Origin: Bacteroidaceae bacterium
GTDB lineage: Bacteria; Bacteroidota; Bacteroidia; Bacteroidales; Bacteroidaceae
Length of the DNA: 64,000 bases
Assembly: GCA_045594385.1 (NCBI GenBank)
Contig: JAZNYM010000032.1
Coordinates: forward strand, 8,339-72,338
Direction of reading: 5' to 3'
This document shows, one piece after another, positions 1-63,625 of this stretch (within the stretch, counting starts at the first letter, position 1; every line of letters begins with the position of its first letter). Under the pieces are notes generated by a model. That model saw only the letters and a list, made by a program, of their open reading frames with translations. It was not told the origin of the DNA and ran no database searches. A program made the translations under genes and the position numbers.

Positions 1-63
1 CAACCTAAACATAGGCAACCGCCACTACAAACAAAGGCAATAGTAGTCAACCAAAACACCATG

Positions 64-169
64 CTGCAGTCCGGCAATAATCTTCATTGTTCCGGACTGC
101 AGTCCTGTCGTATCAGGACTACAGTCCGGGCATGAAAGGACTATAGTCCGAATACGTCAGGACTAGGTC
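64..169. repeat. Tandem array with about 22-bp period of GGACTNNAGTCC-type palindromes (5 units)
   Basis: ctgcagtccgg 64-74, ccggactgcagtcctg 92-107, caggactacagtccggg 114-130, aggactatagtccg 137-150, caggactaggtc 158-169. The core of the best unit is the perfect palindrome GGACTGCAGTCC. Confidence 0.8.
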
Positions 170-245
170 AATAATGTGGTGCGTTACTCGTAATGGCGGG
201 GAGGGTAAACCACAGAAACTGAGCGATAGCCTTGTAACACCGCAA

Positions 246-680
246 TCAATCGAACCAGTTGTACAGATCCAGGTACTTGTCAAAATGGAAGTCTTCCTTC
301 ACACCTGCCTTATGCAGGGCATTGAGGACGACTTCCTGCTCGGCAGGAGAAAGGATGGTATCACCATTGCGACGCTCGAAATAGGCAGAGCGTCCGAAAT
401 GAATAATGAGCGTTGACATGAATTCCCGATATTGTTCCGGGTACATCCGTTTCTGGAAATTGGTGAACCCCTGGGCATAACGAGCGCGAGACGCATCGCG
501 ATAGAACCTGCATGTACTGTCCTTGGAGCAATGGCGCGGATTAGTCATGTGCAGGAAATCTTTGCCCTCGGTCATCTGGGAATAGGCTATCTGGCGGAGA
601 CACATTGATGCCACCGGGCAATCGGCATGCATGCAAACGCCAAATCTGGCAGGAAGAGTGGTGTATATTTTCTTTGGCAT
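246..680 (-). CDS. Conserved hypothetical protein with a Cys-rich N-terminus
   Basis: ORF 246..728 trimmed to the ATG at 680 (MPKKIYTT...). A TATCTTTG -7 box lies about 20 nt upstream. I do not recognise a family with certainty. Confidence 0.55.
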   Translation of the reverse strand: MPKKIYTTLPARFGVCMHADCPVASMCLRQIAYSQMTEGKDFLHMTNPRHCSKDSTCRFYRDASRARYAQGFTNFQKRMYPEQYREFMSTLIIHFGRSAYFERRNGDTILSPAEQEVVLNALHKAGVKEDFHFDKYLDLYNWFD

Positions 681-699
681 AGTGTTAAGGATTTGTAGA

Positions 700-707
700 C
701 AAAGATA
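700..707 (-). promoter_or_regulatory. Candidate Bacteroidota -7 promoter box (TATCTTTG on the minus strand)
   Basis: Plus-strand caaagata at 700-707 is TAnnTTTG on the minus strand, 20 nt upstream of the ATG at 680. Confidence 0.4.
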
Positions 708-812
708 AAGAAGTTTCTGGATAAGCACAAGGAATAATACACGTTTATCTTGGCAGAACAGTTTTTTAGTGGTACAGAGGGCTTTTAATGCGCTTGATAG
801 AAAACATTATCC

Positions 813-820
813 TATCTTTG
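813..820 (+). promoter_or_regulatory. Candidate Bacteroidota -7 promoter box (TATCTTTG)
   Basis: tatctttg at 813-820, only 7 nt before the ATG at 828. This would imply a near-leaderless mRNA, so the call is tentative. Confidence 0.3.
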
Positions 821-827
821 CACTATC

Positions 828-1682
828 ATGAAAAGGATTTTGGTTACTGGTGCGAGCGGTTTCGTGGGAAGCCGCTTTGTGGAGAGGTGGAAGGGCGAGT
901 ACACCATACTTGCCCCCGGGCATGGGGAAATGGACATCACGGACGTGGTCTCGGTGGAGCGGTATTGCATGGAGAAAGTGCCCGATGTGGTGGTGCATCT
1001 GGCGGCGATATCGAACACGTGGTATTGCGAACAGCATCCCGAGGAGAGTTACCGCGTGAATGTGGAGGGGGCATGCAACGTGGCACTGGCTTCGGCAAGG
1101 TGTGGGGCGAAACTGGTGTTCTTCTCCAGCGACCAGGTGTATAACGGGAACAGGGAGAGCGGTCTGCTGACCGAGGACATTGCCGTTGCTCCGGAGAACG
1201 TGTACGGCAGGCATAAACTGGAGGCAGAGGGGCGTGTGCTTGGCACCTGCCCGGAGGCGGTGGCATTGCGTGCCACGTGGATGTACGACATGGAGAGGGA
1301 GGGTATGCCTACGCATGCTAACTTTGTGCTGAACATTGCCCATGCCATCAAGGAGGGAGCACAACTGCGGTTTCCCGTACGTGAGTACAGGGGAATAACG
1401 TGGGTGAAGGAGATTGTAGAACTGTTGCCACATGCCTTTGACCTACCCGGAGGCGTATACAACTTCGGTGCGGAGAACCTGCTGAACACCTACGAGACGG
1501 CATGCCGGTATTGCGAGATGCTGACTGGGGAAAAGAACAATGCTATAATCCTGCCCGACCATGAGCGATACCCCGAGCATGTGCGCAACATTTCCATCAG
1601 TATGGGTAAGGCAAACTGGGCTTCGGGTGGGACAATACGGTTCCATAACACCTTGGAGGGACTGAGGGAGGCGGAACGGTGA
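828..1682 (+). CDS. NAD(P)-dependent sugar-nucleotide reductase/epimerase, RmlD (dTDP-4-dehydrorhamnose reductase)-like SDR
   Basis: N-terminal Rossmann motif VTGASGFVGS, YGRHK (YxxxK) catalytic motif, 284 aa. The TGA stop lies in the first GGTGAGC-type repeat unit. Confidence 0.75.
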   Translation: MKRILVTGASGFVGSRFVERWKGEYTILAPGHGEMDITDVVSVERYCMEKVPDVVVHLAAISNTWYCEQHPEESYRVNVEGACNVALASARCGAKLVFFSSDQVYNGNRESGLLTEDIAVAPENVYGRHKLEAEGRVLGTCPEAVALRATWMYDMEREGMPTHANFVLNIAHAIKEGAQLRFPVREYRGITWVKEIVELLPHAFDLPGGVYNFGAENLLNTYETACRYCEMLTGEKNNAIILPDHERYPEHVRNISISMGKANWASGGTIRFHNTLEGLREAER

Positions 1683-2045
1683 GCGGTGAACGGTGAACGG
1701 TTAGCGATTTAGTTTTCCGTTTTCCGTTTCCAGTTTTCACCTTTTATCATACCCCCTCCGCTTCGCTCGTCCCCCTGTCTCAGGGGGACAGTTTAGAGCG
1801 GATGGGAGGTGAGAGGTGAGCGGATGAGAGAGTCAGAGTAATCAGAGTAATCAGAATATTCCGAGTAATCGGAAAAACCGCTCACCACTCATCCGTTAAA
1901 AACATCACTACTATACCTTATTATATATCCCCCCAATAATACTATTGCAAAACCAATCACCTACGAATACATTATACTCCCCTCCCTTGTGGAGGGGTTG
2001 GGGGGAGGGTCCTCCTCTCTCACCGCTCACCGCTCACCGCTCATA
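1671..2045. repeat. Composite mosaic element L: GGTGARC x3, TTTTCCG x3, hairpin GTCCCCCTGtctCAGGGGGAC, GGTGAGN run, GAGTAATCN 9-mers, AT-rich core, G/C-run hairpin, GCTCACC x3
   Basis: Read directly from the sequence. It is colinear with the reverse complement of 3185-3420. Submodules recur at 5749-5882, 63106-63170 and 63855-63995. Confidence 0.85.
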
Positions 2046-3266
2046 CAAGAAAGCAAAGTGGGCAGGGATGTCGCCCGTGCGGACCTTCCATAGGAGGAGG
2101 CCTTCGGGAGAGAAGCAGAAGAGGGTGCCGGGATTGACGTGGGTGCGGGCATCGCCAATGAGTATCTCACCCGTATGGGGATGGACGGCTATGCCGTAGG
2201 GCTCCATGATGGAGGCATCGGTGCCGTCGGTTATGAAGTTGGTGGTGAGGACCTGGCGGGTGCGGACGTTGACAATACCGTAGTTGGTATGGTTCTGCAT
2301 GGTGGCATAGGAGAACTCGGTGCCTATCACATACAGGGAGTCGCCACGGAGGGTCATGTTCTCCACCACAAGGTCGGTGCCGTCCTGAGCGGTGATGCGC
2401 CGTACCTGCGGAGTGCCGGCCGGGTCGGTGATGCAGAAGAGGGCACTGGTGTTGCCATAGTAATCACCACGGGAGGATACCCACAACCGCCCGTCAGAGT
2501 CGGCCAGGAGATGGTGGAGGTTGACGGCCACGGGGATGCGTCCCTCCTCACGGAAAGTCCCGATATCCACTACCGACACGGTGTTTTCATAGTTGGGAAA
2601 CATGTAACCGCCGCTATTGGCAACGAATATCTTGCCCCCAGCGATGTCCAGACGGTCGGGTTGGAAACCAACGATGCACGTGTCCACCTTCTCCAGCGTG
2701 GCGGTATCTATCTTCACCACCATGCCTTTCTGTTCGTAATCCGGATTTATCTGCACAGGTCCGGCATAACTGGTCACGTAGGCATAGCCCTCGTGGAAAG
2801 CGATATAGCGGCAGTTGGCCAGATTGACCTGCCCCACCCTGCGTGTTGTACGCGCCTCCATCACCTCTATCTTGTTGCTGCAGTTTATCACCGCCCACAT
2901 ACGGTTGCCATAGATGCGGAGGTCGTTGCCCACGTCGCCCAGTTCCTTGACGGCAGAGGGGTTGGCATTGCCGTAGATGTTGCGGATGTATGTGCCAGTG
3001 GTATAGTCATAGAAGTCCATGGTGCACTTGTTGCTGCCCATATTGCCCTCGTTGAGCAGATAGAAACCAAGGATGCTGTCCGTTCGTGTGTCTCCCACCT
3101 CTTCTTCCTCGCTGGGCCACACGATGATGTCGTGGCGGCAGGATTGGAGGAGGAGGAGAGAGAGGAGGAGGAGGAAAAGGAAGACCCACCCCCAACGGAC
3201 CCACCCCCAACCCCTCCCTGTATGGAGGGGAGTATTTAGTGTAAGTGTTGGTATCTTTTTTAGCAT
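2034..3266 (-). CDS. Surface lipoprotein, YncE-like beta-propeller (DUF5074-like), partner of the adjacent TonB-dependent receptor
   Basis: 410 aa with a lipobox (...LLLLQSC). The repetitive propeller-like body is typical of Bacteroidales proteins encoded next to TonB-dependent receptors (TBDRs). ATG 3266 is the only in-frame start upstream of the lipobox. Confidence 0.65.
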   Translation of the reverse strand: MLKKIPTLTLNTPLHTGRGWGWVRWGWVFLFLLLLSLLLLQSCRHDIIVWPSEEEEVGDTRTDSILGFYLLNEGNMGSNKCTMDFYDYTTGTYIRNIYGNANPSAVKELGDVGNDLRIYGNRMWAVINCSNKIEVMEARTTRRVGQVNLANCRYIAFHEGYAYVTSYAGPVQINPDYEQKGMVVKIDTATLEKVDTCIVGFQPDRLDIAGGKIFVANSGGYMFPNYENTVSVVDIGTFREEGRIPVAVNLHHLLADSDGRLWVSSRGDYYGNTSALFCITDPAGTPQVRRITAQDGTDLVVENMTLRGDSLYVIGTEFSYATMQNHTNYGIVNVRTRQVLTTNFITDGTDASIMEPYGIAVHPHTGEILIGDARTHVNPGTLFCFSPEGLLLWKVRTGDIPAHFAFLYER

Positions 3267-3476
3267 TGAAGTAATCGGACTATATATAATAATAAGGTAT
3301 AGTAGTGATGTTTTTTTAACGGATGAGCGAAGAGCGGATGAACGATGAGCGATTTAGTTTCCCGTTTTTCCCAACTGTCCCTCTGAGACAGGGGGACAAT
3401 CGGCTGGCGCAGTGTTTTCTGTCGTAACCACCCCCTCCCCTTGCGGGAGGGTTGGGGAGGGGTCCTCTCCCTCTAC
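3185..3476. repeat. Composite mosaic element R, an inverted copy of element L, followed by a direct copy of the G/C-run hairpin module
   Basis: A 21-bp perfect core, taataaggtatagtagtgatg at 3290-3310, is the reverse complement of 1903-1923. The flanking modules are colinear. Module ccccctccccttgcgggagggttggggaggggtcc lies at 3430-3464. Confidence 0.85.
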
Positions 3477-5527
3477 CACTCCACCTTCACACTCCCCTTC
3501 CAGTTGCGTCCGGGCATGGGATAGTTGTGTATGACATCGTATTGCTGGTTGAAGAGGTTGTTGCACTCCACGGCAAAGGTGAGGACGAGACGAGGGAGTT
3601 GCCAACGGTAGGTTGCCGACAGGTCGTGCGTGTACCAAGGCTGTTCGTAGTTCTCACGGATGTTGGCACTGGTATGGTAGCGCTCGCCCACATAGATGAA
3701 CGAGTAGTTAAGTCCGAGATTCCGCCACGACAGGTTTCCCGCCACGCTACCGCTATGCCAGGGGATGTATGCTATCTGGCCTCCGTAGGTGCCATAGTAG
3801 GGATCGTTGTCCGTAGGGTCGGTACGGTCGGTGGCCGACTGGTAGGTGTAGTTCAGGCAGAGCACCAGCGACCAGTCCCTGCGCCAACGCAGCACCGTCT
3901 CGGCCGTTGCCTCCACGCCGGCAATGTGCACCTTGCCCACGTTCATCATCATCCAGCGGTACTGGCCCGAGCCCTTGGGAATGGCAACTATCTTGTTGTC
4001 CACCATATTGAAATAGCCGTCGGCCTTCACCTCCACATGGCGGAACAGGCCACGGTACCAGTCGTGCGAGTAGATGAAGCCAAGGTTCCACTGACGGGTC
4101 GTCTCGGGTTGGAGCGAGGCATTGCCAACCTCGGTATAGTAGAGGTCGTTGAACGTGGGCAGGCGGAAGATGCCTTTATAGAAAGCACGGAGCGAGAGGT
4201 CGGGGCACTCCCTCAATGGCTGATAAGACACGTACAAGGCCGGTGTCCATCGGCTGGTGGTGTTGGAAACGGGGTCGGACGTGATGCCCTTGGTGGTACT
4301 GTCCCACACATTGGTACCAAGGAGCGAAGCCATCAGGCGCAGACGGCGGTATTCGTATTGCGTGGCAAGAGCAAGCAGGAGTGTGTGGCGCACGGGAAAG
4401 ACGAAGTTGGTGAGCGAGGCATCCAGCGTGTTGTACTGATAGTCGGCGGCCAGGTTCACCTGCCAACCGGGGAGCAGTTCCACATGGTGTGCCGTGCTGA
4501 GGTATAGTTCGTTCTGCCGGAACTTGTTGTCCTGATACATCAGGGTAGTGTCGGGGTTGAGGTAGCGCATGTGGTCGTTGGCATACTTGCCGCTGACCTG
4601 GAACTTATACCTGTCGGACACATGCTTTGTCCATTGCCCCTGGGCAAAGAAGTTTCTGTCCCACTGGCGCTGGGAGTGCTTCCATACATTATTGACGATG
4701 GCTCCGGGTATGCCACGCTCCGAGTCGTAGTAGTAGGCCTTGGCATTCCATGTGCCGTCCTGGGTGTTGCCAAAGACGGATGCTTCCACACGAAAGGAAC
4801 GTATATCGCCATTCTGGCGGACGGCAGTAGTGTCCCATGCCACCTGGCCCGAAGGAAGGACACGGCGGTAGCGGAACCTGTACTTGCCCGACGCACCCGT
4901 ATAGTCGGCACTAAGGCTGCTGCTTATGCGCTTGCTCCAGCGCTGCTCCCATGTCAGCGAGGGGTTGATGAGACCGAAACTGCCACCCTTGAGCGAAGTA
5001 CGGAGATTGTGGTTCTTGCCCTCCCCAAACCTGGGGCGACGTGTGCGGATGTACACCGAACCCGAAGTTCCGTAGTCGCGTGCCGGCTGGAATATCTGTG
5101 CCTTCTGCCCGTTGTAGAGTGCTATCTCCTCCACATTGTCCAGGGAGAAGCGGCCGAGGTCCACAAGGCCGTTCTGTGCATTGCCCAACTGTATGCCGTC
5201 GTAGAACACCCCCATGTGGTTGGTGCCCATACTGCGTATGTCTATGGTCTTCAGGCCTCCCACACCGCCATAGTCCTTTATCTGCACACCGCTGAAATAG
5301 CGCATGGCATCGGCCACGGAGAAGGAGGACAAGGACTCCAGCCGTTTGCCGCTGAGGCGCTGGCTGGGGACAATCTCCTCCGAGCGACGGGCATAGACGC
5401 TTACCTCCATCATACAGGAAACGCTATCCTGCCCATAGGCGGAATGAATAACAGAGTCCCTCTCCTGAGCGAACGTCAGAAGAGGGAAAAGGGTACAGAG
5501 TACGGGCAAGATACTCCTTAGGTTCAT
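3473..5527 (-). CDS. TonB-dependent outer-membrane receptor (plug plus 22-strand barrel, BtuB/CirA size class)
   Basis: 684 aa with a signal peptide. Plug-domain motifs are present (DAMRYFSGVQIKDYGGVGGLKTIDIRSMG). The C-terminal aromatic residue (..KVEW) is typical of OM barrels. Confidence 0.9.
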   Translation of the reverse strand: MNLRSILPVLCTLFPLLTFAQERDSVIHSAYGQDSVSCMMEVSVYARRSEEIVPSQRLSGKRLESLSSFSVADAMRYFSGVQIKDYGGVGGLKTIDIRSMGTNHMGVFYDGIQLGNAQNGLVDLGRFSLDNVEEIALYNGQKAQIFQPARDYGTSGSVYIRTRRPRFGEGKNHNLRTSLKGGSFGLINPSLTWEQRWSKRISSSLSADYTGASGKYRFRYRRVLPSGQVAWDTTAVRQNGDIRSFRVEASVFGNTQDGTWNAKAYYYDSERGIPGAIVNNVWKHSQRQWDRNFFAQGQWTKHVSDRYKFQVSGKYANDHMRYLNPDTTLMYQDNKFRQNELYLSTAHHVELLPGWQVNLAADYQYNTLDASLTNFVFPVRHTLLLALATQYEYRRLRLMASLLGTNVWDSTTKGITSDPVSNTTSRWTPALYVSYQPLRECPDLSLRAFYKGIFRLPTFNDLYYTEVGNASLQPETTRQWNLGFIYSHDWYRGLFRHVEVKADGYFNMVDNKIVAIPKGSGQYRWMMMNVGKVHIAGVEATAETVLRWRRDWSLVLCLNYTYQSATDRTDPTDNDPYYGTYGGQIAYIPWHSGSVAGNLSWRNLGLNYSFIYVGERYHTSANIRENYEQPWYTHDLSATYRWQLPRLVLTFAVECNNLFNQQYDVIHNYPMPGRNWKGSVKVEW

Positions 5528-5739
5528 TTCTTGTGGCGATTTGCCCTCTGGCGACGGATGTCAGCCTTCTTCTTGGCCGCGCCGCTGCCATGGGCACCGG
5601 TGATGTACTGCTTTTTCTTGGCCTTGGTCTTCACCTTGGCCTGCTCACGGGGATTGGGTTCCCGCTTGGGACCACCCTTGAAGGTTATGCCACCTCCCGT
5701 GATTACTGCATCTATATCGTCTCCACCAAACATGTTCAT
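5524..5739 (-). CDS. Small, very basic hypothetical protein (71 aa), possibly translationally coupled to the TBDR
   Basis: ATG start. Its TGA overlaps the TBDR ATG (ATGA overlap at 5524-5527). It is Gly-rich then Lys/Arg-rich with no recognisable family. Several frames are open here, so coding status is uncertain. Confidence 0.35.
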   Translation of the reverse strand: MNMFGGDDIDAVITGGGITFKGGPKREPNPREQAKVKTKAKKKQYITGAHGSGAAKKKADIRRQRANRHKK

Positions 5740-5748
5740 AATTCAAAC

Positions 5749-5882
5749 GGTGAGGGGTGAGGGGATGAGCGGTGAGCGGGATTTCCGATTACTCGGAATA
5801 TTCTGATTATTCGGATTACTCGGATTACTCCGACTCTCTCATCCGCCCACCCGCTCACTTTACAGTTTTCCGTTTTAATCCC
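5749..5882. repeat. Composite mosaic element: GGTGAGG/GGTGAGC run, inverted GAGTAATCN 9-mer module, TTTTCCG module
   Basis: 5765-5845 is the reverse complement of the module at about 1815-1890 (ggatgagagagtc[a/g]gagtaatc...cagaatattccgagtaatcggaaa). tttacagttttccgtttt matches 1707-1735. Confidence 0.8.
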
Positions 5883-5974
5883 GCTTCGCGGTCTTTTCCT
5901 CCTTGTTGCTCGGCATAATCAAAGTAAACTTTGCTTCTGCCCTCGCTTCCTGCGTCGGTTCACCTTTCAGTTTA

Positions 5975-7156
5975 TTAATGGTGGAACAGGCGCACACCGG
6001 TGAAGGCCATAGCTATGCCGTACTTGTCGCAAGTCTCGATAACATGGTCATCGCGCACGCTGCCTCCTGCCTGTGCCACATACTGCACACCGCTCTTGTG
6101 GGCACGCTCTATGTTGTCGCCGAAGGGGAAGAAGGCATCGCTGCCCAGACACACTCCGGTGTTCTGTGCCAGCCACTCCTGCATCTCCTGCTCGGTGAGA
6201 GGTTCGGGGCACTCGGTGAAGAACTTCTGCCATTCGCCGTCGCGCAGAACGTCCTCGCGCTCGGGCCCGATGTAGATGTCAATGGTATTGTCGCGGTCGG
6301 CACGACGTATGCCGGGCACAAAGGGAAGGTTCATCACCTTGGGGTGCTGGCGCAACCACCAGATATCGGCCTTGTTGCCTGCCAGGCGGGTGCAGTGGAT
6401 ACGGCTCTGCTGGCCGGCACCGATACCGATGGCCTGTCCGTCCTTCACGTAGCACACACTGTTGCTCTGGGTGTACTTCAAGGTAATGAGGGCGATTATC
6501 AGGTCGCGACGTGCCTCATCGTTGAAGGTCTTGTTCTGTGTGGGGATATTCTCGAAGAGAGCGGGATCGGCCAGGTTTATCTCGTTGCGTCCCTGCTCGA
6601 AGGTGATGCCGAAGCACTGCTTGCGCTCGATGGGAGCGGGAGTGTACTCGGGATCTATCTGGATGACGTTGTATGTACCCTTGCGCTTTGCCTTCAGCAC
6701 CTCCAAAGCCTCGGGGGTGTAGCCGGGAGCGATGACGCCGTCGCTGACCTCACGGTTGATGAGGCGGGCGGTTGACTCGTCGCACACGTCGCTCAGCGCA
6801 ATGAAGTCGCCGTAGGAACTCATGCGGTCGGCACCACGTGCACGTGCATAGGCACTGGCTATGGGAGTGAGGGGCAGAGGAGCGTCGTCCACGAAATACA
6901 CCTTCTTCAAAGTGTCGCTCAGGGGCAGACCTACGGCAGCGCCGGCAGGGCTGACGTGCTTGAAACTGGCGGCGGCAGGCATACCTGTGGCAGCTTTCAG
7001 TTCCTTGACCAACTGCCAGGAGTTGAAAGCGTCCAGGAAGTTGATATAACCGGGACGGCCGTTCAGTACTTCAATGGGCAGTTCGCCCTCTTCCATGTAG
7101 ATTCTGGAAGGTTTCTGGTTGGGGTTGCAACCATACTTCAATTCAAGTTCCTTCAT
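5975..7156 (-). CDS. purH: AICAR formyltransferase (PurH transformylase domain only; no N-terminal IMP cyclohydrolase/MGS domain)
   Basis: 393 aa. It has KHVSPAGAA and the C-terminal GSDAFFPF...AQAGGSVRD...GIAMAFTGVRLFHH motifs characteristic of the PurH AICARFT domain. Confidence 0.85.
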   Translation of the reverse strand: MKELELKYGCNPNQKPSRIYMEEGELPIEVLNGRPGYINFLDAFNSWQLVKELKAATGMPAAASFKHVSPAGAAVGLPLSDTLKKVYFVDDAPLPLTPIASAYARARGADRMSSYGDFIALSDVCDESTARLINREVSDGVIAPGYTPEALEVLKAKRKGTYNVIQIDPEYTPAPIERKQCFGITFEQGRNEINLADPALFENIPTQNKTFNDEARRDLIIALITLKYTQSNSVCYVKDGQAIGIGAGQQSRIHCTRLAGNKADIWWLRQHPKVMNLPFVPGIRRADRDNTIDIYIGPEREDVLRDGEWQKFFTECPEPLTEQEMQEWLAQNTGVCLGSDAFFPFGDNIERAHKSGVQYVAQAGGSVRDDHVIETCDKYGIAMAFTGVRLFHH

Positions 7157-7241
7157 ATTTTTCTATCTATAAATCAAGTTTCTTCATTAAAACACAAATA
7201 GCCACCCTTCCATTGCAGGAGGAGTGACTAAATGGATTTTG

Positions 7242-7645
7242 TGGAGCTGGAGGGGATTGAACCCTCGTCCAAACAGGGACATCCCATGCTTTCTACACGC
7301 TTATTCCGGACTTCGGTTGTAGGGAAGCGACAAGACCCGGACCACCAATCGCAACCTTAGCATCAAGAGAATTTCATCACCGAGTAGATGCGTCCTCAAC
7401 GACTATCCCCGAATTGCTGTGCCACTGAGCCTGAGAGTTTCAGGGCGTGAACCTCAGAGTGACATCCCGTCTCAGCACCTGGTGCCGAGATAAAGCCGGT
7501 AATCTACTGTACTTCGATTAGGCAGCGAGAGCGTAGTTCTTTTCGCCAGATAAATTCTTGAAGGTCAGATATTATAGAGAGCGGCCAACAACCCTCTGCG
7601 TGCTTACATGACATCTCATCCTGCTGTCAAATCCATGTCAGCCCC
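7242..7645 (-). ncRNA. ssrA: tmRNA (SsrA), tag reading frame GEKNYALAA-stop at 7518-7547
   Basis: The minus-strand 5' end GGGGCTGACATGGATTTGACAGC pairs with the 3' CAGCTCC-A, including the G3:U wobble. A T-arm GGGTTCAATCCCC is present. The tag ORF ggc gaa aag aac tac gct ctc gct gcc taa is present. CCA is not encoded. Confidence 0.93.
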
Positions 7646-7664
7646 AATGTCATTATGCAGGGGC

Positions 7665-7672
7665 AAAGGTAC
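7665..7672 (-). promoter_or_regulatory. Candidate -7 box (TACCTTTG) for ssrA
   Basis: Plus-strand caaaggta at 7665-7672, about 19 nt upstream of the mature tmRNA 5' end. Confidence 0.45.
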
Positions 7673-7904
7673 GAATAAGTGAGCATTCTACCAAATTTAT
7701 TCAAGGAAATCAGGTTTCCGTACCCACCAAATGCCGACAAAGCACAGGAAACCGCATATAAGTTTGAAAGTTTTTTACTAACTTTGTTGCGATATTGATG
7801 ACTCCACACAATATACTCCGTAAGGTAAACGTTATATATTCAAGTGCCCAAGGCAGACAACCGCGCACAGAAACACAGGAAAAAAGAAAACGAACAACCA
7901 AGAT

Positions 7905-10388
7905 ATGAAAAACAGAATCATTGCCTTTGCCACCATCCTGCTCGTCTCGCTTGCAGCGATGGCACAATCATCAATGACAGACGACCAGGTGCTGAAATAC
8001 CTGGTTACGGAAACACAAAAGGGCACATCGCAACAGAAGATGGCCGCAGAACTGCTTAAGAAAGGCGTAACACCAACGCAGTTGCAACGTGTACGCAAAA
8101 AGGCCGAGAAACTCCGCGAGGAAGCAGAAAACACCGGCAGTAAAGATAAGAAGAAGGAGAAAAAAGGCAAAAAGGACGATGACGAACTGGACATGGACGC
8201 TTCTCAGAGCCGTGCTGAAGAATTGGGTCTGGAACAAAGTGATGAAGAACTCGTCGGCGAAAGCACAGACGACATCCTCGGAATAACCGAAGAGGACCAG
8301 CGCCAGGTGTTCGGCCGAAACATCTTCAATGCCAAGAACCTTACCTTCCAACCTTCGACCAATATAGCCACTCCGGCCAACTACACCATAGGGCCCGCCG
8401 ACATGGTGACCATCAACATTTGGGGAGCCAGCCAGCAAACCATTGAAGCAGAAGTCTCTTCCGACGGATACATCGTGATTGAAGGTGTCGGCCCCGTAAA
8501 ACTGGCAGGACTAACCGTAGAACGAGCAAAAAATGTGCTACGCAACAAATTAAGCCAGCACTATAGTGATTGTAGTTTTGATCTTTCATTGTCCGAGACC
8601 CGAAGCATTCAAGTGCAGGTCATGGGCGAAGTCAAGGTGCCAGGCACATACACCCTTAGCAGTCTCTCCACCGCCTTCAACGCCCTGTACATGGCTGGAG
8701 GCATAAGCAAAATCGGTACCCTGCGCGATATAAGGGTTTACCGTAGCGGAAAGAACATAAGCAGTATTGACGTATATGACTATATTCTGAACGGCAACAG
8801 CCGTGGCGACATCCGTCTGGAGGACAACGACGTTATTGTGGTGGGAGCATACAATTGTCTGGTACAAATCAAAGGCAATGTAAAGCGACCCATGTGGTAT
8901 GAGATGAAAAAGTCGGAAACTGTCAAGGACCTGCTTACCTATGCCGGATCATTTACCGGCAACGCATACACAAAGAACGTGCGACTGACACGCAAATCGG
9001 GAGACGAGTACAGCATCCACACCATTGACGAATTCCAGATGGGCAGTTTTTCTATGGCCGACGAGGACATGGTAGAAGTGGACAGCATCAGGGCACGCTT
9101 CAGCAATAAAGTGGAAGTAAGAGGTGCGGCCAAGCATCCCGGTCTCTTTGAACTCGGAGGCAAGATACAGAGTGTGCGCGACCTGCTTCTGGCAGCCGAA
9201 GGTCTTAGCGAGGATGCCTACGAAGGCAGAGCAATCATGCACCGTGAGAACGAGGACCTGACCCTGCGCATGATCAACGTGGACATACACGGCATCATAG
9301 CCGGCACCACAAGCGACATTCCACTGAAGAACAACGACGTGCTCTTCATTCCCAGCAAATCCGACATGCTGGGCGAGAGAATTATCGACGTAAAGGGAGA
9401 AGTTACCTACCCCGGCCAGTATCCCTATGCCAACAACACCACCATACAGGACATTATCCTGCAAACCGGCGGTCTCACAGAAGCCGGTTCACTGGCACGT
9501 GTAGACGTTTTCCGGCGCATACGCGACAATAAATCTGCTTTGGCCGGTACGAACAGTTCCATAAACTTCAGCTTCTCCCTAGACGAGCAATTTGCCATTC
9601 AGGAGGACACAACCTTCTTCCTGGAACCATACGACATCGTTGTCGTGCGCAAGAGCCCTTCATACAAGGAACAACAGAACGTAACCGCCCAGGGCGAAGT
9701 CAACTTTGAAGGTCAATACTCGCTTACCAACAAGAACTACCGACTGTCCGACCTGGTAAAGGCATGCGGAGGCCTAACAGACATGGCATACATCCGTGGT
9801 GCAAAACTGATACGCCTAATGACCCAGGAAGAGTTGGAACAGCGCGACCAGGCCAACCTGAAGGCACAAATCCAACTATACGAAGACGGACTCAAGGAAG
9901 GCAAGGACATGAACATGCAGATTGCCGATTCGCTCCTGTCCCTGAAGACCAATACCTCAAACACCTTCCCCGTTGCCATCAACCTGGAAGAAGCCATGGC
10001 TAATCCGGGGACTGATGACGACATCCTGCTTCGCGAGGGAGACGTCCTCTCTGTTCCAGAAAAGAGCAACATCATCAAAATCAGCGGCGAGGTAATGTAC
10101 CCCGTGAGCATGAGTTACGAGAAAGGAAAGAAGCTCAGTTACTACATCCACCATGCAGGCGGTTACAGCACCAACGCGTCAAAGAGTAAGGTTTACGGCA
10201 TCAATGCCAACGGCTCGGTCGTAAAGCTCAGCAGCAATTCCGCACGTGCCATACAGCCCGGCATGGAAATTGTCGTTCCGCAGAAGAGTGCAAAAAAGAA
10301 ACTGTCCACAACTGAAATCATAGGCATCGGTTCTGGTATTGCCGCTCTTGCCAGCGTAATCGTAGCCCTGCTGAATGCAATAAAGTAA
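7905..10388 (+). CDS. wza: Outer-membrane polysaccharide export protein, Wza/BexD-type with multiple SLBB domains
   Basis: 827 aa with a signal peptide and repeated SLBB-like segments. There is a K/E/D-rich low-complexity stretch near the N-terminus. It is followed by wzz and wzy. Confidence 0.85.
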   Translation: MKNRIIAFATILLVSLAAMAQSSMTDDQVLKYLVTETQKGTSQQKMAAELLKKGVTPTQLQRVRKKAEKLREEAENTGSKDKKKEKKGKKDDDELDMDASQSRAEELGLEQSDEELVGESTDDILGITEEDQRQVFGRNIFNAKNLTFQPSTNIATPANYTIGPADMVTINIWGASQQTIEAEVSSDGYIVIEGVGPVKLAGLTVERAKNVLRNKLSQHYSDCSFDLSLSETRSIQVQVMGEVKVPGTYTLSSLSTAFNALYMAGGISKIGTLRDIRVYRSGKNISSIDVYDYILNGNSRGDIRLEDNDVIVVGAYNCLVQIKGNVKRPMWYEMKKSETVKDLLTYAGSFTGNAYTKNVRLTRKSGDEYSIHTIDEFQMGSFSMADEDMVEVDSIRARFSNKVEVRGAAKHPGLFELGGKIQSVRDLLLAAEGLSEDAYEGRAIMHRENEDLTLRMINVDIHGIIAGTTSDIPLKNNDVLFIPSKSDMLGERIIDVKGEVTYPGQYPYANNTTIQDIILQTGGLTEAGSLARVDVFRRIRDNKSALAGTNSSINFSFSLDEQFAIQEDTTFFLEPYDIVVVRKSPSYKEQQNVTAQGEVNFEGQYSLTNKNYRLSDLVKACGGLTDMAYIRGAKLIRLMTQEELEQRDQANLKAQIQLYEDGLKEGKDMNMQIADSLLSLKTNTSNTFPVAINLEEAMANPGTDDDILLREGDVLSVPEKSNIIKISGEVMYPVSMSYEKGKKLSYYIHHAGGYSTNASKSKVYGINANGSVVKLSSNSARAIQPGMEIVVPQKSAKKKLSTTEIIGIGSGIAALASVIVALLNAIK

Positions 10389-13884: not shown

Positions 13885-13992
13885 GTCAGTACCGATTTTA
13901 GTCACACATAATCGGTACTGCAGTACCACCACGTCGGTACTGCAGTACCGACATGTAGGTATTAGAGTACTGACACGACGGTACTGCACTAT
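13885..13992. repeat. Tandem array with 22-bp period of GGTACTGCAGTACC-type palindromes at a convergent gene junction
   Basis: GGTACTGCA-type cores start at 13914, 13936, 13958 (degenerate) and 13980. gtcggtactgcagtaccgac at 13933-13952 is a perfect 20-bp palindrome. Confidence 0.8.
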
Positions 13993-37771: not shown

Positions 37772-37860
37772 ATCTTGCTTTTTTTTATCTTTTCACTCCC
37801 CTTCTCGTAAATAGCGGACCGGCTTCGGCTAATATGCAATACATTGTCACTAACCGTTCG

Positions 37861-37948
37861 CCGAAACATCGATAATCGTTCGCCGAAGCATCAGTAATCG
37901 TTCGCCGAACGAACGATAATGATTCACAGGCATCACCGTGAGAGTAAA
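37861..37948. repeat. 22-bp tandem repeat x4 (TAATCGTTCGCCGAAnnATCnn family)
   Basis: Units start at 37861, 37883, 37905 and 37927. The same family, period and copy number occur at 62947-63040. Confidence 0.8.
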
Positions 37949-48084: not shown

Positions 48085-49185
48085 ATGAAGTCCCTGAAGA
48101 AAACCATCCGATACATTTGGCATATTATCGCCCTGCTCTTAATACCGTTGCGGTATGCTATCTACTGCACAAGATTCCAAAAACATTTACACATAACGGC
48201 AGAGGTTGCCGAAGAGAAACTTTCTGCCATCCAGCCCGACAAAGGACAAACCTGTCTGTGCAACAACAGCATAGAAGCCGCCTACGACCTTCACATCATC
48301 GTACCCGTATACAATACTGCCCCATACCTAAAACAATGCCTCGATTCCATCTTTCAGCAAGAGACAGAGTTTTCCTTCTTTGTCTCCATAGTGGATGACG
48401 GCAGTACAGACAACAGTCCAGCCTTGCTCGACGATTATCATGCGTCCCTACAAGGAAGTTCCCATTACTCTAACACTGAAATCATACATCAGACCAACCA
48501 AGGGCCGTCTGCCGCCAGAAACGTTGCCCTCAGGAACATACGCGGCAAATACCTCATGTTCGTTGACAGCGATGACATGCTTCTGCCCGGAGCCATCCAG
48601 ACGCTAATGAACGTCGCCATCCTGTCTGGGGCAGACATTTCTGAGGGGAACTTCAACTGTGGCCCATCACATGGCTGTGCGTGCGGAAAGGTTTATCGTT
48701 CGGAACTCTTCCGCCATGTCCATTTCCCACCCGGATATTGGTTCGAGGATACCCTGAACATCTTCTATCTTTATCCTCTCTGCCACAGGATTGTCCAGGT
48801 TCCGGGCACACACTACTATTATCGGCCAAATCCAGTTTCCATCATGCATTCCTTTCAGGGCAATGAGCGTACTGTGGACTCTCTTTGGGTAAGCCGACGC
48901 GTCCTTTCCGACTACTTCTCGCAAGGACACAAGGCGACGCCCAAACTGCTACGCTTCTATCTTCAGGACACTCTTTCCACTGCCTCACATTTCCACACTT
49001 TGAAAAACGAGCAGGCCATGCAGGCGCTTTTCGTCACTCATTGCGATATATTCCAGAAATACTTTGCCGCTTCCCAAAATGACAGCAGTCACAACACCGG
49101 ACTCCCACTTCTACTGAAAGGGGTTGCCTTTTCTTTGTCAAAAGCAAACTACAGATTATTCCGCACTATTGCAGACTGTATTTAA
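48085..49185 (+). CDS. Glycosyltransferase family 2 with an N-terminal TM segment
   Basis: IIVPVYNTAPYLKQCLDSIFQQ, IVDDGSTDNS, GPSAARN and FVDSDD motifs. Confidence 0.85.
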   Translation: MKSLKKTIRYIWHIIALLLIPLRYAIYCTRFQKHLHITAEVAEEKLSAIQPDKGQTCLCNNSIEAAYDLHIIVPVYNTAPYLKQCLDSIFQQETEFSFFVSIVDDGSTDNSPALLDDYHASLQGSSHYSNTEIIHQTNQGPSAARNVALRNIRGKYLMFVDSDDMLLPGAIQTLMNVAILSGADISEGNFNCGPSHGCACGKVYRSELFRHVHFPPGYWFEDTLNIFYLYPLCHRIVQVPGTHYYYRPNPVSIMHSFQGNERTVDSLWVSRRVLSDYFSQGHKATPKLLRFYLQDTLSTASHFHTLKNEQAMQALFVTHCDIFQKYFAASQNDSSHNTGLPLLLKGVAFSLSKANYRLFRTIADCI

Positions 49186-49350
49186 CCCAAATCGGGCATC
49201 AGACTGCTACGCAATAATGAAACCATCTTTTTGTCACCCGTTTCGTCGTTTCGCGGTTACAATGGAACCCTATTGCGCCCTCAAAGCGGCAAAACATCTG
49301 TCCAAAAATAGAGGCTATTATCATCATAACGCTAATGAGCGATTTGGGTA
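49184..49350 (+). mobile_element. 167-bp MITE-like element with 11-bp terminal inverted repeats (AACCCAAATCG ... CGATTTGGGTa)
   Basis: A second copy of identical length, about 85 percent identical by eye and in inverted orientation, lies at 62726-62892. The element starts inside the TAA stop of the GT2 gene. Confidence 0.7.
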
Positions 49351-56296: not shown

Positions 56297-56390
56297 CTAG
56301 AACACCTAGAAAGACTAGAAGTTCTAGAAAGTCTAGGATGTCTAGGAAGACTAGGATGTCTAGGAAGACTAGGAAGTCTAGTTCCTCTAG
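56297..56390. repeat. CTAG array: 11 CTAG cores on a strict 9-bp register
   Basis: CTAG starts at 56297 plus 9n for n = 0..10, counted by hand. The last CTAG contains the TAG stop of the AAA ATPase gene. Confidence 0.9.
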
Positions 56391-57671: not shown

Positions 57672-57905
57672 GTGAAGAGGTGAGAGGTGAGAGGTGAGCG
57701 GTGAGAGGTGAGCGGTGAGCGGTGAGCGGTGAGAGGATGAGAGGATGAGAGGTGAGAGGTGAGCGGTGAGAGGATGAGAGGATGAGAGGTGAGCGGTGAG
57801 CGGTGAGCGGTGAGCGGATGAGCGGATGAGCGGATGAGCGGAAACCTGAAACTTGAAACCTGAAACTTGAAACCTGAAACCTTCAACCAGTAACCTTCAC
57901 CGTTC
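57672..57905. repeat. Composite 7-bp arrays: (GGTGAGN/GGATGAG) about 24 units, then (CTGAAAC/TTGAAAC) about 6 units
   Basis: Read directly from the sequence. It is the reverse complement in type of 60820-61114. The mtgA stop (57897-57899) lies in the last degenerate unit, cggtgaagg. Confidence 0.9.
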
Positions 57906-58592: not shown

Positions 58593-58613
58593 AAAGCAAT
58601 CTTTTAGAAAAGC

Positions 58614-58707
58614 CTAGAATATCTAGAATATCTAGAGAGACTAGAAAGACTAGAAGGACTAGAAGGACTAGATTGTCTAGATTGTCTAGATTGTCTAGAA
58701 AACCTAG
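58614..58707. repeat. CTAG array: 11 CTAG cores on a strict 9-bp register (twin of 56297-56390)
   Basis: CTAG starts at 58614 plus 9n for n = 0..10, counted by hand. It fills the gap between the GH20 stop and the mtgA start. Confidence 0.9.
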
Positions 58708-60819: not shown

Positions 60820-61114
60820 GGTTAAAGTTTCAAGTTTAAGGTTTCAAGTTTCAAGGTTTCAGGTTTCAAGTTTCAAGTTTCTGGTTTAAAGTTTTAGGTT
60901 TCCGCTCATCCGTTCACCGCTCACCGCTCATCCGCTCACCGCTCACCGCTCACCGCTCACCGGTTTCAAGTTTCAAGTTTCTGGTTTAAAGTTTAAGGTT
61001 TCCGCTCATCCGCTCACCACTCATCCGCTCACCGCTCATCCGCTCATCCGCTCATCCGCTCATCCGCTCACCGTTTATCGCTCACCGCTCACCGCTCACC
61101 GTTTATCGCTCACC
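60820..61114. repeat. Composite 7-bp arrays in duplicate: (GTTTCAA) then (GCTCACC/GCTCATC), twice
   Basis: GTTTCAA-type at 60824-60900 and 60962-61000. GCTCACC-type at 60901-60961 and 61001-61114. It covers the last 6 codons and the stop of the S24 gene. Confidence 0.9.
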
Positions 61115-61929
61115 GCCTGTGCAATTTTTACGTACTCCTCGAAGCGTATTCCTGTCACGGGGGCATTGTTTATATTCCATTGGTTTACAGGCCTGCAAAA
61201 GCTGCCAACAGCCATGCGCCTCATGGCATCCACCGTCGGTAGGCTGGGATGCTCCGGAACAGCTCTGGCAACCATGTCCACAAAGGTGGCGTACATCTCC
61301 GACTCACACAGTCCCATGTCCACCAATGCCCTGTACACGGCATACCAATGACGTGAATTGCGTACCATGGGAGCCGCCTTGCATATCAGCGGACCGGGAT
61401 CGTCCATGGGTTTGTCTTCTGGCGTTTCAGCAGCCTTAAGCACCCGCATTATACTGGCATGGCTATAGCGTGGAGCATCCTTTGTCACTTTCACCACCTT
61501 TCCCACTATCCTCACGTCCATGTCTTCCGTCAGCCTGATTGGTTTGTAGGCTTCGTTGGCCGGCACCAGCCAGCATTGTCCGTTCTCATCGCGGAAGAAA
61601 GCCTTCAGCGTAAACTCTCCGTCTATGGCGGCCACCACTATGTCACCGTCATCTGCACAGGGACCGGATTTTATCTGGAGCTTGTCGCCGGGCATGATGC
61701 CTATGTCCGTCATCGAGTTGCCTGTCACGTCCACGCTGAAAGTGATTCCCAGATTCAGGAAACTCTTGGACAAGAACAAACATTCATCCCTTGGAATATC
61801 TCCGCACACGGTGGGAGTGCCGGCCCTCACGGCCTGGTTCATGTCTGGAACGGGTATATTGCAGAGTTCGGGGTTAATCACATCGCCCTGCATCTCTCCC
61901 AGTATTTCCTTCAGTTCTTCGTCTGTCAT
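61096..61929 (-). CDS. UmuD/LexA-type S24 self-cleaving peptidase domain fused to an unrecognised C-terminal domain
   Basis: A RAG/TP candidate Ala-Gly cleavage site, a GNSM Ser nucleophile, a Lys in FTLKAF, and GDIVVAAIDGEFTLK. The start is set to MTDEEL (61929) because upstream codons are repeat-derived. Confidence 0.7.
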   Translation of the reverse strand: MTDEELKEILGEMQGDVINPELCNIPVPDMNQAVRAGTPTVCGDIPRDECLFLSKSFLNLGITFSVDVTGNSMTDIGIMPGDKLQIKSGPCADDGDIVVAAIDGEFTLKAFFRDENGQCWLVPANEAYKPIRLTEDMDVRIVGKVVKVTKDAPRYSHASIMRVLKAAETPEDKPMDDPGPLICKAAPMVRNSRHWYAVYRALVDMGLCESEMYATFVDMVARAVPEHPSLPTVDAMRRMAVGSFCRPVNQWNINNAPVTGIRFEEYVKIAQAVSDKR

Positions 61930-61933
61930 GGTA

Positions 61934-62024
61934 ATCGGGTTTCGGGTTTGAGGTTTCAAGTTTCAAGTTTAAGGTTTTAGGTTTCAGGTTTCAAGTTTCA
62001 GGCTTCAGGTTTCAGGTTTCAGGT
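61934..62024. repeat. GTTTCAN 7-bp array filling the S24/four-helix-bundle intergenic gap
   Basis: tcgggtttcgggtttgaggtttcaagtttcaagtttaaggttttaggtttcaggtttcaagtttcaggcttcaggtttcaggtttcagg. It supplies the TGA stop of the four-helix-bundle gene. Confidence 0.9.
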
Positions 62025-62424: not shown

Positions 62425-62632
62425 GTTTAAGGTTTCTGGTTTCAAGTTTCAAGTTTCTGGTTTCAAGTTTCTGGTTTCAAGTTTCTGGTATGCCTCTTGC
62501 TCTGTTATCATGAGATGCCCTTACGCTCCTTGGCTTCTTGAAACTTGAAACTTGAAACATGAAACCTATAATTTGTACTTCCTTGACTTCTTGAAACATG
62601 AAACTTGAAACTTGAAACTTGAAACATGAAAC
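62425..62632. repeat. Inverted 7-bp arrays: left arm (GTTTCAA/GTTTCTG), right arm (TTGAAAC/ATGAAAC) duplicated
   Basis: Left arm 62425-62489. Right arms 62536-62566 and 62589-62632, each preceded by a cttccttgrcttc-like motif. Confidence 0.85.
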
Positions 62633-62725
62633 TAGAGCCTCCACGCTCCTTTTCTCCCCGCAAATTTACTTTTTTTATTCCACATCACCAAAATTTTGGG
62701 ACATCTTGTAGTAAAACGGCAATTC

Positions 62726-62892
62726 AACCCAAATCGGTCATTAGCGTTATGATGATAATAGCGTTTGTTTTTGAACAGATGTTTTGCCACTTTGAGGGCG
62801 CAATGGGGTTCCATTGTAACCGAGAAGTGACGAAACAGATGACAAAAAGAAGGTTTCATTAGCGCATAACAGTCTAATGAACGATTTGGGTT
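62726..62892 (-). mobile_element. Second copy of the 167-bp MITE-like element (perfect 11-bp TIRs AACCCAAATCG / CGATTTGGGTT)
   Basis: Inverted relative to the copy at 49184-49350 and of the same length. Confidence 0.7.
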
Positions 62893-62946
62893 AAACATTG
62901 TTACTACAGAATCAAAAGACCTCCCCCATGGCACTGTCATTTTATC

Positions 62947-63040
62947 ATCGGTAATGGTAAATTTTGCCATCGGTGACGGTAAATCTCACCATCGGTAATC
63001 GTTCGCCGAACGATCGGTAATGATTCGCCTTCATCATCGT
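62947..63040. repeat. 22-bp tandem repeat x4 (CATCGGTAATnGTTCGCCGAA family)
   Basis: Units start at 62947, 62969, 62991 and 63013. 62993-63045 is nearly colinear with 37905-37950. Confidence 0.8.
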
Positions 63041-63060
63041 GAGGACAAGAAGCACCCCTC

Positions 63061-63625
63061 AATAGGAAGGTTTAAAGTTTAAAGTTTCAGGTTTCAGGTT
63101 TCTCGCTACTTTGTCCCTCTGAGACAGGGGGACGAGGAACAAAGTTCCGGAGGGGGTATGATAAGTACTGCTGTCAGGCTTCATCGTTCATCGTTCTTTT
63201 ACAGACCCCTCAGCCCTTCGGGCACCTCGCCCTAACTTAGGGGAGGAAAGGGGGAGGGGGGGGCAAGTTTCAGGTTTAAGGTATCCGCTCAGCACTTCCC
63301 GGTTTAAGGTTTCAGGTTTCAAGTTTCAAGTTTAAGGTATCCGCTCAGCGCTTCCCGGTTTAAGGTTTCAGGTTTCAAGTTTCAAGTTTAAGGTATCCGC
63401 TCAGCGCTTCCAAGTTTAAGGTTTCAAGTTCGCTAAGGCCTTAAACCCGAAACATGAAACATGAAACTCCAAACCTGAAACATGAAACCTGAAACATGAA
63501 ACCTGAAACTCCAAACCCGAAACATGAAACTTGAAACATGAAACTTGAAACTCCAAACTCTAAACCCGAAACTTGAAACCTGAAACCTGAAACTTTAAAC
63601 CTGAAACTTTAAACTCCAAACCCGA
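63061..63625. repeat. Large composite: GTTTMAR arrays, hairpin module, G-rich tract, 56-bp tandem repeat x about 2.7, then an inverted (nTGAAAC) arm
   Basis: gtccctctgagacagggggac occurs near 63106-63130. gtatccgctcagc recurs at 63281, 63337 and 63393 (56-bp spacing). The symmetry centre AAGGCCTT is at 63435-63442. The GAAAC-type arm runs 63443-63625. Confidence 0.85.

Follow-up and report, generated by a model that had tools for sequence, protein, structure and literature searches.

A dispersed palindromic repeat as the probable source of the start codon and signal-peptide N-terminus of a BtuG-like lipoprotein gene in a Bacteroidaceae bacterium

Introduction

The DNA analysed in the present study is a 64,000-nt stretch from a Bacteroidaceae bacterium (contig JAZNYM010000032.1, positions 8,339 to 72,338), referred to below as the window. 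All coordinates are positions in the window, and L-numbered loci (L001 and so on) are the homologous or metagenome loci compared with it. The subject is a BtuG-like lipoprotein open reading frame (ORF) of 410 amino acids (aa) (2034-3266, minus strand; DUF5074/YncE-family beta-propeller), which is bracketed by inverted copies of a mosaic repeat element and has its sole start codon within one of them. What does such a repeat do at the start of a lipoprotein gene? An earlier note on this DNA had proposed either a portable start codon and leader, possibly with a promoter, or an inverted pair that could flip the whole gene as an on/off switch. We consider it probable that a non-autonomous repeat, resembling MITEs (miniature inverted-repeat transposable elements) and the hairpin-forming doublets (REPINs) of repetitive extragenic palindromic (REP) sequences, overwrote the start of the gene and now supplies the start codon and the N-terminus of the signal peptide, and that no orientation switch operates.

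Results

The start of the lipoprotein gene was examined first. Between the stop upstream and the lipobox Cys (codon 3138-3140), ATG 3266 was the only in-frame ATG, GTG or TTG, as the earlier note had claimed. Its account of a repeat-encoded leader was also borne out, since codons 2-28 fall within the core and inner hairpin repeat of the element, and the h-region (3147-3182) is a CTC/CTT microsatellite whose length differs among strains in whole codons. A conserved L-Q-S-C lipobox follows the 12-residue Leu-rich run and Arg/Lys residues. The terminal inverted repeats (TIRs) of the element are free of TAA, TAG and TGA on both strands, and N-terminal fusions through them are therefore possible. 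We infer that ATG 3266 is used and that the repeat-encoded leader serves as a signal peptide.

The upstream (right) element was delimited by an inverted-repeat search at 3197-3466 (minus strand; ~270 nt). It is bounded by TIRs, because the hairpin repeat at 3197-3235 has an inverted counterpart at 3430-3466; the pair 3197-3230 and 3432-3465 is 71% complementary over 34 nt, and the corresponding pair in L004 is 91% complementary over 33 nt. Each TIR is ~36 nt long and contains a G/C hairpin and a G-tract; the pattern CCCCTCC-N5/6-GGAGGGG is present in each. Read in the direction of the gene (minus strand throughout), the element consists of the outer TIR (3430-3466) and subterminal GGTTACGACAG, hairpin H2 (3377-3397), 7-mer remnants (3313-3368), an AT-rich core with the ATG at 3264-3266 (3236-3315) and the gene-proximal inner TIR (3197-3235). 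A 15-nt tandem duplication (GACCCACCCCCAACG twice; 3183-3211) at the outer end of the inner TIR is translated as WVRWGWV without disturbing the frame, and the microsatellite encoding the h-region FLFLLLLSLLLL leads on to the lipobox (3138-3182). In L001, L004 and L011 we found a compact form of ~150 nt without the ~110-nt H2/7-mer insert. In order, it comprises the outer hairpin repeat GGACCCCTCCCCAACCCTCCC-gcaag-GGGAGGGAGT, GGTTACRACAG, a ~70-nt AT-rich centre with the ATG, ..ACATTAT and the inner hairpin repeat ACTCCCCTCCC-ttgtg-GGAGGGGTTGGGGGAGGGTC. The window copy carries the extra ~110 nt (hairpin H2 and 7-mers) directly after GGTTACGACAG. The only ORFs within the upstream element run in from neighbouring genes, and it carries no transposase gene.

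Comparison with related loci indicated that this N-terminus is derived. In the ortholog L020 (79% identity), the receptor stop is followed by 16 nt and then MKKTGMVFLLFVALGLVLVSC; this gene has repeats on neither side and an ordinary signal peptide, so that the repeat-derived N-terminus is secondary. More distant orthologs also have ordinary lipoprotein signal peptides. The 59%-identical ortholog L068 has a homologous element with an ATG in the same position, which indicates that the arrangement is old or has spread by recombination.

The reading frame was then compared among the loci. At every element-bearing locus, the core ATG and the Cys share one reading frame, which has been kept despite the 15-nt duplication, a 75-nt nested hairpin module (25 codons, no stop) and changes in microsatellite length; a 2-nt difference between the cores of leader types A and C (described below) is offset in the hairpin loop, where the two types differ by 1 nt. 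In some genomes, the equivalent start of the downstream copy has degenerated to TTG or ATA. Preservation of the frame upstream while the downstream starts decayed suggests that the upstream ATG is used. The mature lipoprotein is >90% conserved over many strains, with no frameshifts.

These data bear on the explanation that the start is mis-assigned, or the gene a pseudogene, in which case the element would be only a 5' untranslated region or intercistronic spacer and translation would begin at a non-canonical codon after the TIR, or no protein would be made. The leader is indeed long and of odd composition, the NCBI pipeline started one homolog (P0078, MIVWPSEEEE) at an internal position, and TIRs that are open in all six frames make extension of an ORF into them partly automatic. 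Nevertheless, the window offers no ATG, GTG or TTG between the TIR and the Cys, and initiation beyond the Cys would drop the lipobox that all orthologs retain. Independent indels that preserve the frame and a mature protein free of frameshifts likewise argue against this explanation, as do the Sir2, LeuC and other genes described below, which would lose conserved N-terminal motifs without the ATG of the element. We regard a mis-assigned start as quite unlikely.

The relation between the two copies was analysed next. Alignment agreed with the earlier note that 1741-2022 (+) and the reverse complement of 3185-3420 are colinear, in the order hairpin GTCCCCCTG..CAGGGGGAC, simple repeats, core, variable block and CCCCTCC..GGAGGGGTTGGGGG. 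A perfect core is present as reported, but it measures 27 nt (1898-1924 and 3289-3315) rather than 21; in shuffled sequence, 0 matches are expected for the core and for either hairpin pattern. The copies are inverted and mosaic, as described, while the picture of a ~290-bp unit needed correction: the right copy spans 3197-3466, the sub-block 1674-1723 stands in direct, not inverted, orientation to 3320-3368, and the left copy has an extra block of ~50 nt. The element pair is a mosaic and not a single rigid 290-bp unit. The downstream (left) copy (1741-2022, plus strand), which has no outer TIR, comprises an H2-long module (1750-1793), 7-mer/22-mer repeats (1796-1838), the extra block, which is an array of the 9-mer TCAGAGTAA (1833-1877), a core with a decayed start (1896-1975) and a TIR (1974-2012). 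A pyrimidine run with a CTCACCG 7-mer array (2010-2043, plus strand) links this TIR with the lipoprotein gene at its 3' end. The last two codons and the stop (Y-E-R-TGA) fall in this array, read as GAGCGGT on the gene strand, and the repeats therefore delimit the lipoprotein gene at both ends. The homologue of the coding start that the earlier note had seen in the left copy is present (ORF at TTG 1945, MQNQSPTNTLYSPPLWRGWGEG..), and the same sequence is the actual lipoprotein N-terminus in other strains.

Relatives at >89% identity carry at least three alternative leaders. Type A is that of the window (MLKKIPTLTLNTPLHTGRGWGWV...); type B differs from it by a 25-codon insert, a separate two-hairpin module without a stop that is nested in the inner repeat; and type C (MQNQSPTNTLYSPPLWRGWGRV...) has the sequence of the supposedly vestigial ORF in the window's downstream copy. 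In type C, a TTG in the hairpin loop would give a signal peptide of 19-23 residues, an alternative that type A does not have. The downstream position also varied. It holds a type C copy in the window, L001-L008 and L058 and a type A copy in L014, the copy is absent in L010, L053-L057, L059-L063 and L016 (where a different gene follows), and another TIR-bounded element replaces it in L011-L013 and L018. Most A/B-type strains and several C-type strains thus lack the downstream copy or have another element in its stead, and the content between TIRs varies freely among strains. Since leader types move between the upstream and downstream positions, the copies recombine. The exchange was either by gene conversion or by paired inversions, two routes that assemblies do not separate. 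At L065 (1-80), the locus's outer hairpin repeat is joined to unrelated flanking DNA and not to the receptor gene, which is likely an assembly chimera at the repeat.

Another explanation is an invertible-gene switch, in which recombination between the copies would flip the 1.2-kb gene, leaving it off or under transcription from the convergent RmlD-like gene. Inverted copies do bracket the gene, their complementarity in L004 reaching 150 nt at 89%; each copy has a start codon and a leader, and two successive inversions with different crossovers could yield the two leader types that swap positions among strains. The replacement element downstream of the gene has its inner ~58 nt oppositely oriented in L011 (5215-5349) and L018 (4290-4400), which could reflect inversion between TIRs or independent insertions. 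In some strains, those with near-identical copies, contigs break inside the repeats and leave the orientation there unresolved.

The orientation itself was nevertheless constant. In all 47 contigs showing a flanking gene, which represent leader types A, B and C as well as orthologs of as little as 75% identity, the receptor, lipoprotein and convergent RmlD-like genes had the same orientation (0 inverted); L016 and L017 have a DUF6261 gene in the convergent position instead. Proteins of the MQNQ type, which an inverted gene in a type-A strain is predicted to produce, were in the normal orientation in every case examined. The downstream copy is often missing, no recombinase gene was found among the neighbouring genes called at these loci, and a consensus scan found the Bacteroidetes -7 motif TAnnTTTG nowhere in 1327-7663, both copies included, so that neither the inversion nor the promoter envisaged in the earlier note was supported. 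A sigma-70-type promoter match at 1896-1924 was dismissed, as that consensus is not meaningful for this phylum. An inverted-junction scan of JGI metagenome contigs gave 0 matches, a weak result because the close homologs come from ENA/Logan and none is listed from JGI. Collectively, these results make an inversion switch very improbable.

To place the element in a wider family, metagenome contigs were scanned with the TIR pattern. The scan yielded 31 loci, with at least eight contigs from the single assembly ERZ808043. At most of the loci, the partner TIR lies 60-200 nt away and the centres are variable, some with nested hairpins or tandem repeats, and the loci have the subterminal motifs ATAATGTACTG.. 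and ..GTCGGTTGTAACC in common. Within the window, TIRs occur only at the lipoprotein locus. The flanks of the TIRs run on into variable GGGTCCGYTGGG or CTC runs. These results indicate a dispersed, MITE/REPIN-like family of presumably non-autonomous repeats in gut Prevotella-like genomes. Literature searches returned nothing specific describing this Prevotella repeat family. When other proteins were searched for the leader with a peptide profile, even the lipoproteins themselves were missed, probably owing to low-complexity filtering, although the search yielded L014.

We further analysed 58 terminal repeats in the metagenome loci. Repeat ends are typically 4-50 nt from the neighbouring ORF, and several TIRs lie 9-40 nt ahead of a native ATG, for example at TrxB-like, aminotransferase-like and XseB-like genes. 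At least nine adjacent genes lack a native start and are read in frame from an ATG inside the element: MacB/FtsX-like permeases (two in L023, two in L030 and one in L036), LeuC (L024 and L044), a Sir2-family gene (L052) and a PepD-like peptidase (L042). The Pfam domains of these proteins begin a few residues beyond the repeat, with SIR2 starting at residue 27 where the repeat ends at 18, Aconitase/LeuC at residue 23 where it ends at 17, and MacB_PCD at residue 39 where it ends at 22. An identical MSDIVSTPLPCGG leader stands on both LeuC (L044) and Sir2 (L052). At L051 (~768-870), an element lies within a single open frame of 1899 nt, bridging a QueA-like gene and the gene that follows with no intervening stop codon. 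The portable start proposed in the earlier note is thus supported for the family, which gives LeuC, Sir2, PepD-like and MacB/FtsX-like genes their sole start, but not for the AT-rich core found here, which is specific to this locus.

Several results weigh against the reading that a dispersed repeat overwrote the lipoprotein start. When the AT-rich centre was searched for with two core anchors, only three matches were found in 185,579 species genomes, all at the lipoprotein locus; the genomes are those of uncultured Bacteroidaceae from human, water deer and yak, and the matches are all downstream of this lipoprotein gene. The idea that the whole 290-bp unit is a dispersed element was rejected on this ground, and only its ends are dispersed. 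The AT-rich centre could be native sequence caught between two hairpin repeats, only the ends behaving as a repeat family. The flanks of the metagenome loci contained no consistent direct repeat that would mark a target-site duplication, and no cognate transposase was identified in data that lack a complete host genome. The TIR hairpins were no more stable than shuffled sequence (z -0.4 to -0.8). The leader before the Cys has 42 residues, which is long, although in BtuG2 of B. thetaiotaomicron the Cys is at residue 32 (PMC10404256). Finally, a crude count gave 26 TIR ends facing 5' gene ends and 27 facing 3' ends, so that a preference of the family for gene 5' ends was not supported. Because the two kinds of end are faced about equally, start donation looks like survivorship rather than design. 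It is most likely a tolerated outcome of elements that fill intergenic space completely, and does not speak for targeting.

The pairing of the repeats might also act in the RNA. On this account, the paired hairpin repeats, or both copies across the cistron, form a long stem that sets the translation, processing or stability of BtuG, which would be the reason that the element is retained. In the RNA fold predicted for 3130-3480, the start codon is enclosed by pairing between the outer and inner TIRs (minimum free energy -116.8 kcal/mol, z -2.1), the copies flanking the gene are complementary over up to 150 nt at 89% in some strains, and mRNA structure is reported to tune initiation in Bacteroidetes, which lack Shine-Dalgarno (SD) sequences (PMC6847099). 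On the other hand, the z-score is modest and no Rfam family was found in the region. The family adjoins unrelated genes at 5' and 3' ends alike, the downstream copy is dispensable, and the content between the TIRs varies freely. We therefore consider a selected RNA structure unlikely.

The identities of the bracketed gene and its neighbours were examined next. Directly upstream, in the same orientation, is a BtuB1-like TonB-dependent receptor gene (3473-5527, minus strand), whose stop codon is 6 nt from the outer TIR. The receptor matched the solved BtuB1 of Bacteroides thetaiotaomicron (8BLW_A) with E 6.9e-129, and the lipoprotein matched the BtuG1 propeller (8BLW_B) with E 2.2e-31 and the DUF5074 domain. 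These matches to the BtuB1/BtuG1 structures identify the bracketed gene as a BtuG-like surface lipoprotein of a vitamin-B12 uptake pair, for which cobalamin binding is predicted. The structure of the BtuB1G1 complex has been solved (PMC10404256), and BtuB-BtuG pairs are also described in PMC6143338. As in those Bacteroides pairs, a TonB-dependent receptor adjoins a beta-propeller surface lipoprotein, whereas the pair described here has a repeat-derived signal peptide and no C-terminal BtuH domain. A further difference concerns riboswitches: a cobalamin riboswitch has been described at Bacteroides btuB loci (PMC10404256), but an Rfam scan of 1-8000, including 5740-5975 upstream of the BtuB-like operon, detected none at E<=1.

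The receptor gene is preceded by a conserved 71-aa ORF (5524-5739, minus strand). This Lys/Gly-rich ORF (69-71 aa) has an ATGA overlap with the start of the BtuB-like receptor, is kept in all related loci and has no Pfam match. A third, partial copy of the left copy's 7-mer and 9-mer block lies upstream of this ORF and the receptor (5748-5851, minus strand), with the 9-mer block inverted at 5763-5851. On the other side, the RmlD-like gene (828-1682, plus strand) is convergent to the lipoprotein gene. The neighbouring genes called at these loci were PurH-like, the 71-aa ORF, the receptor, RmlD-like, DUF6078, DUF4465 and a beta-lactamase-family gene. The only Rfam family found in 1-8000 was tmRNA (RF00023, 121 bits, full length; 7239-7645, minus strand), with TAnnTTTG motifs just upstream at 7664-7699.

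Further repeats were observed elsewhere in the window. Intergenic arrays at 56306-56381, 57676-57896, 58609-58701, 60825-61116, 61938-62024, 62425-62633 and 63068-63615 consist of 7-mers (GGTGAGC, GTTTCAA/GAAACYT) and 9-mers (CTAGNNNNN, TCAGAGTAA) and abut start and stop codons directly. Each array unit has a stop codon on one strand, and the 7-mer arrays therefore close the three frames of that strand. A further H2-long module (GTCCCTCTGAGACAGGGGGAC ... GGAGGGGGTATGAT) lies at 63100-63165; the outer part of the left copy (1750-1793) consists of this module too. Tandem repeats of 22 nt (TAATCGTTCGCCGAAACATCGA type) are common to the intergenic sites 37851-37942 and 62939-63043, and a separate palindromic 22-mer array is at 13912-13988. 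Two inverted repeats of 169 nt (49181-49349 and 62727-62895), 13 kb apart and 88% complementary, are unrelated to the hairpin-repeat family. A block of genes at ~10400-37700, which begins after a polysaccharide-export gene (7905-10388), has a third-position GC content of 0.27-0.47 compared with 0.6-0.75 in its flanks and may be a horizontally acquired surface-polysaccharide locus.

Discussion

Taken together, the results are most readily explained by the following sequence of events. The repeat would have inserted between the BtuB-like receptor and BtuG-like lipoprotein genes and overwritten the ancestral start codon and the N-terminus of the signal peptide. Translation would now begin at the ATG in the AT-rich centre and pass through the inner TIR, giving a Gly/Trp/Arg-rich n-region, and would then read on through the CTC/CTT microsatellite contiguous with the repeat end, giving a poly-Leu h-region and the conserved lipobox. 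The downstream inverted copy would belong to the same element lineage, present only in some strains, and would swap sequence with the upstream copy by gene conversion or double recombination rather than serving as an orientation switch.

The closest published analogue that we found is the BrickBuilt MITE of Porphyromonas gingivalis, which has internal tandem repeats (PMC4596501), and Bacteroidota are MITE-rich (PMC11602168). Both BrickBuilt and the element described here are small, non-coding, multicopy, confined to one lineage and close to gene ends, with inverted-repeat ends and internal tandem repeats; the likeness described here is one of features. BrickBuilt is reported to be always intergenic (49-591 nt from coding sequences) and to have promoter activity (PMC4596501), whereas the present element overlaps coding sequence, would supply a start codon and has no promoter motif that we could find. 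The REP, REPIN and bacterial interspersed mosaic elements (BIMEs) of Proteobacteria similarly consist of an imperfect palindrome of ~36 nt in inverted doublets around a short variable spacer, and mosaics with other motifs fill intergenic space. The present family differs in its phylum, in its longer and more variable spacer and in its intrusion into coding sequence at gene starts and stops; the REP-associated tyrosine transposase (RAYT, IS200/IS605-like) of REPINs was not identified here, in data without a whole host genome.

Rickettsia palindromic elements (RPEs) reportedly insert in frame into ORFs (Ogata et al. 2000). In RPEs, as here, a palindromic repeat is tolerated in coding sequence and translated as an extra peptide segment, but RPEs are internal to ORFs, whereas the present element would replace the N-terminus, provide the initiation codon and stand in for the signal peptide. 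The invertible promoters and SusC-SusD shufflons of Bacteroides resemble this locus in that inverted repeats flank a segment by outer-membrane receptor or lipoprotein genes in Bacteroidales. In contrast to those systems, neither orientation heterogeneity nor a promoter in the segment nor an invertase next to it was found here, and many strains lack the second repeat. Palindromic repeats and MITEs tolerated within coding sequence are already known. What appears unusual is a palindromic repeat that would supply the initiation codon and essentially the whole lipoprotein signal peptide, with alternative leaders at the strain level.

A broader role may be considered, although we find it doubtful and offer it tentatively. 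The family might act as a mobile "translation-start cassette" suited to SD-less Bacteroidota, in which ends open in six frames and an ATG-bearing AT-rich interior would produce viable N-terminal fusions wherever an element lands at or over a gene start. At the present locus it would have provided a complete, length-variable lipoprotein signal peptide, and exchange between copies would yield leaders A, B and C that tune the export or expression of a B12-capture protein.

If overwriting of the lipoprotein start by a MITE/REPIN-like repeat is confirmed, many starts in uncultured Prevotella-like gut bacteria may sit inside repeats, leading to mis-called N-termini and contig breaks, and predictions of signal peptides and localisation for surface proteins such as BtuG would be affected. 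Among bacteria, the locus would clearly exemplify the co-option as coding sequence of a mobile repeat that contributes the start codon, the n-region and possibly the h-region. The alternative leaders of related strains would then constitute a natural experiment on the tolerance of the Bacteroidota lipoprotein signal peptide and on SD-independent initiation.

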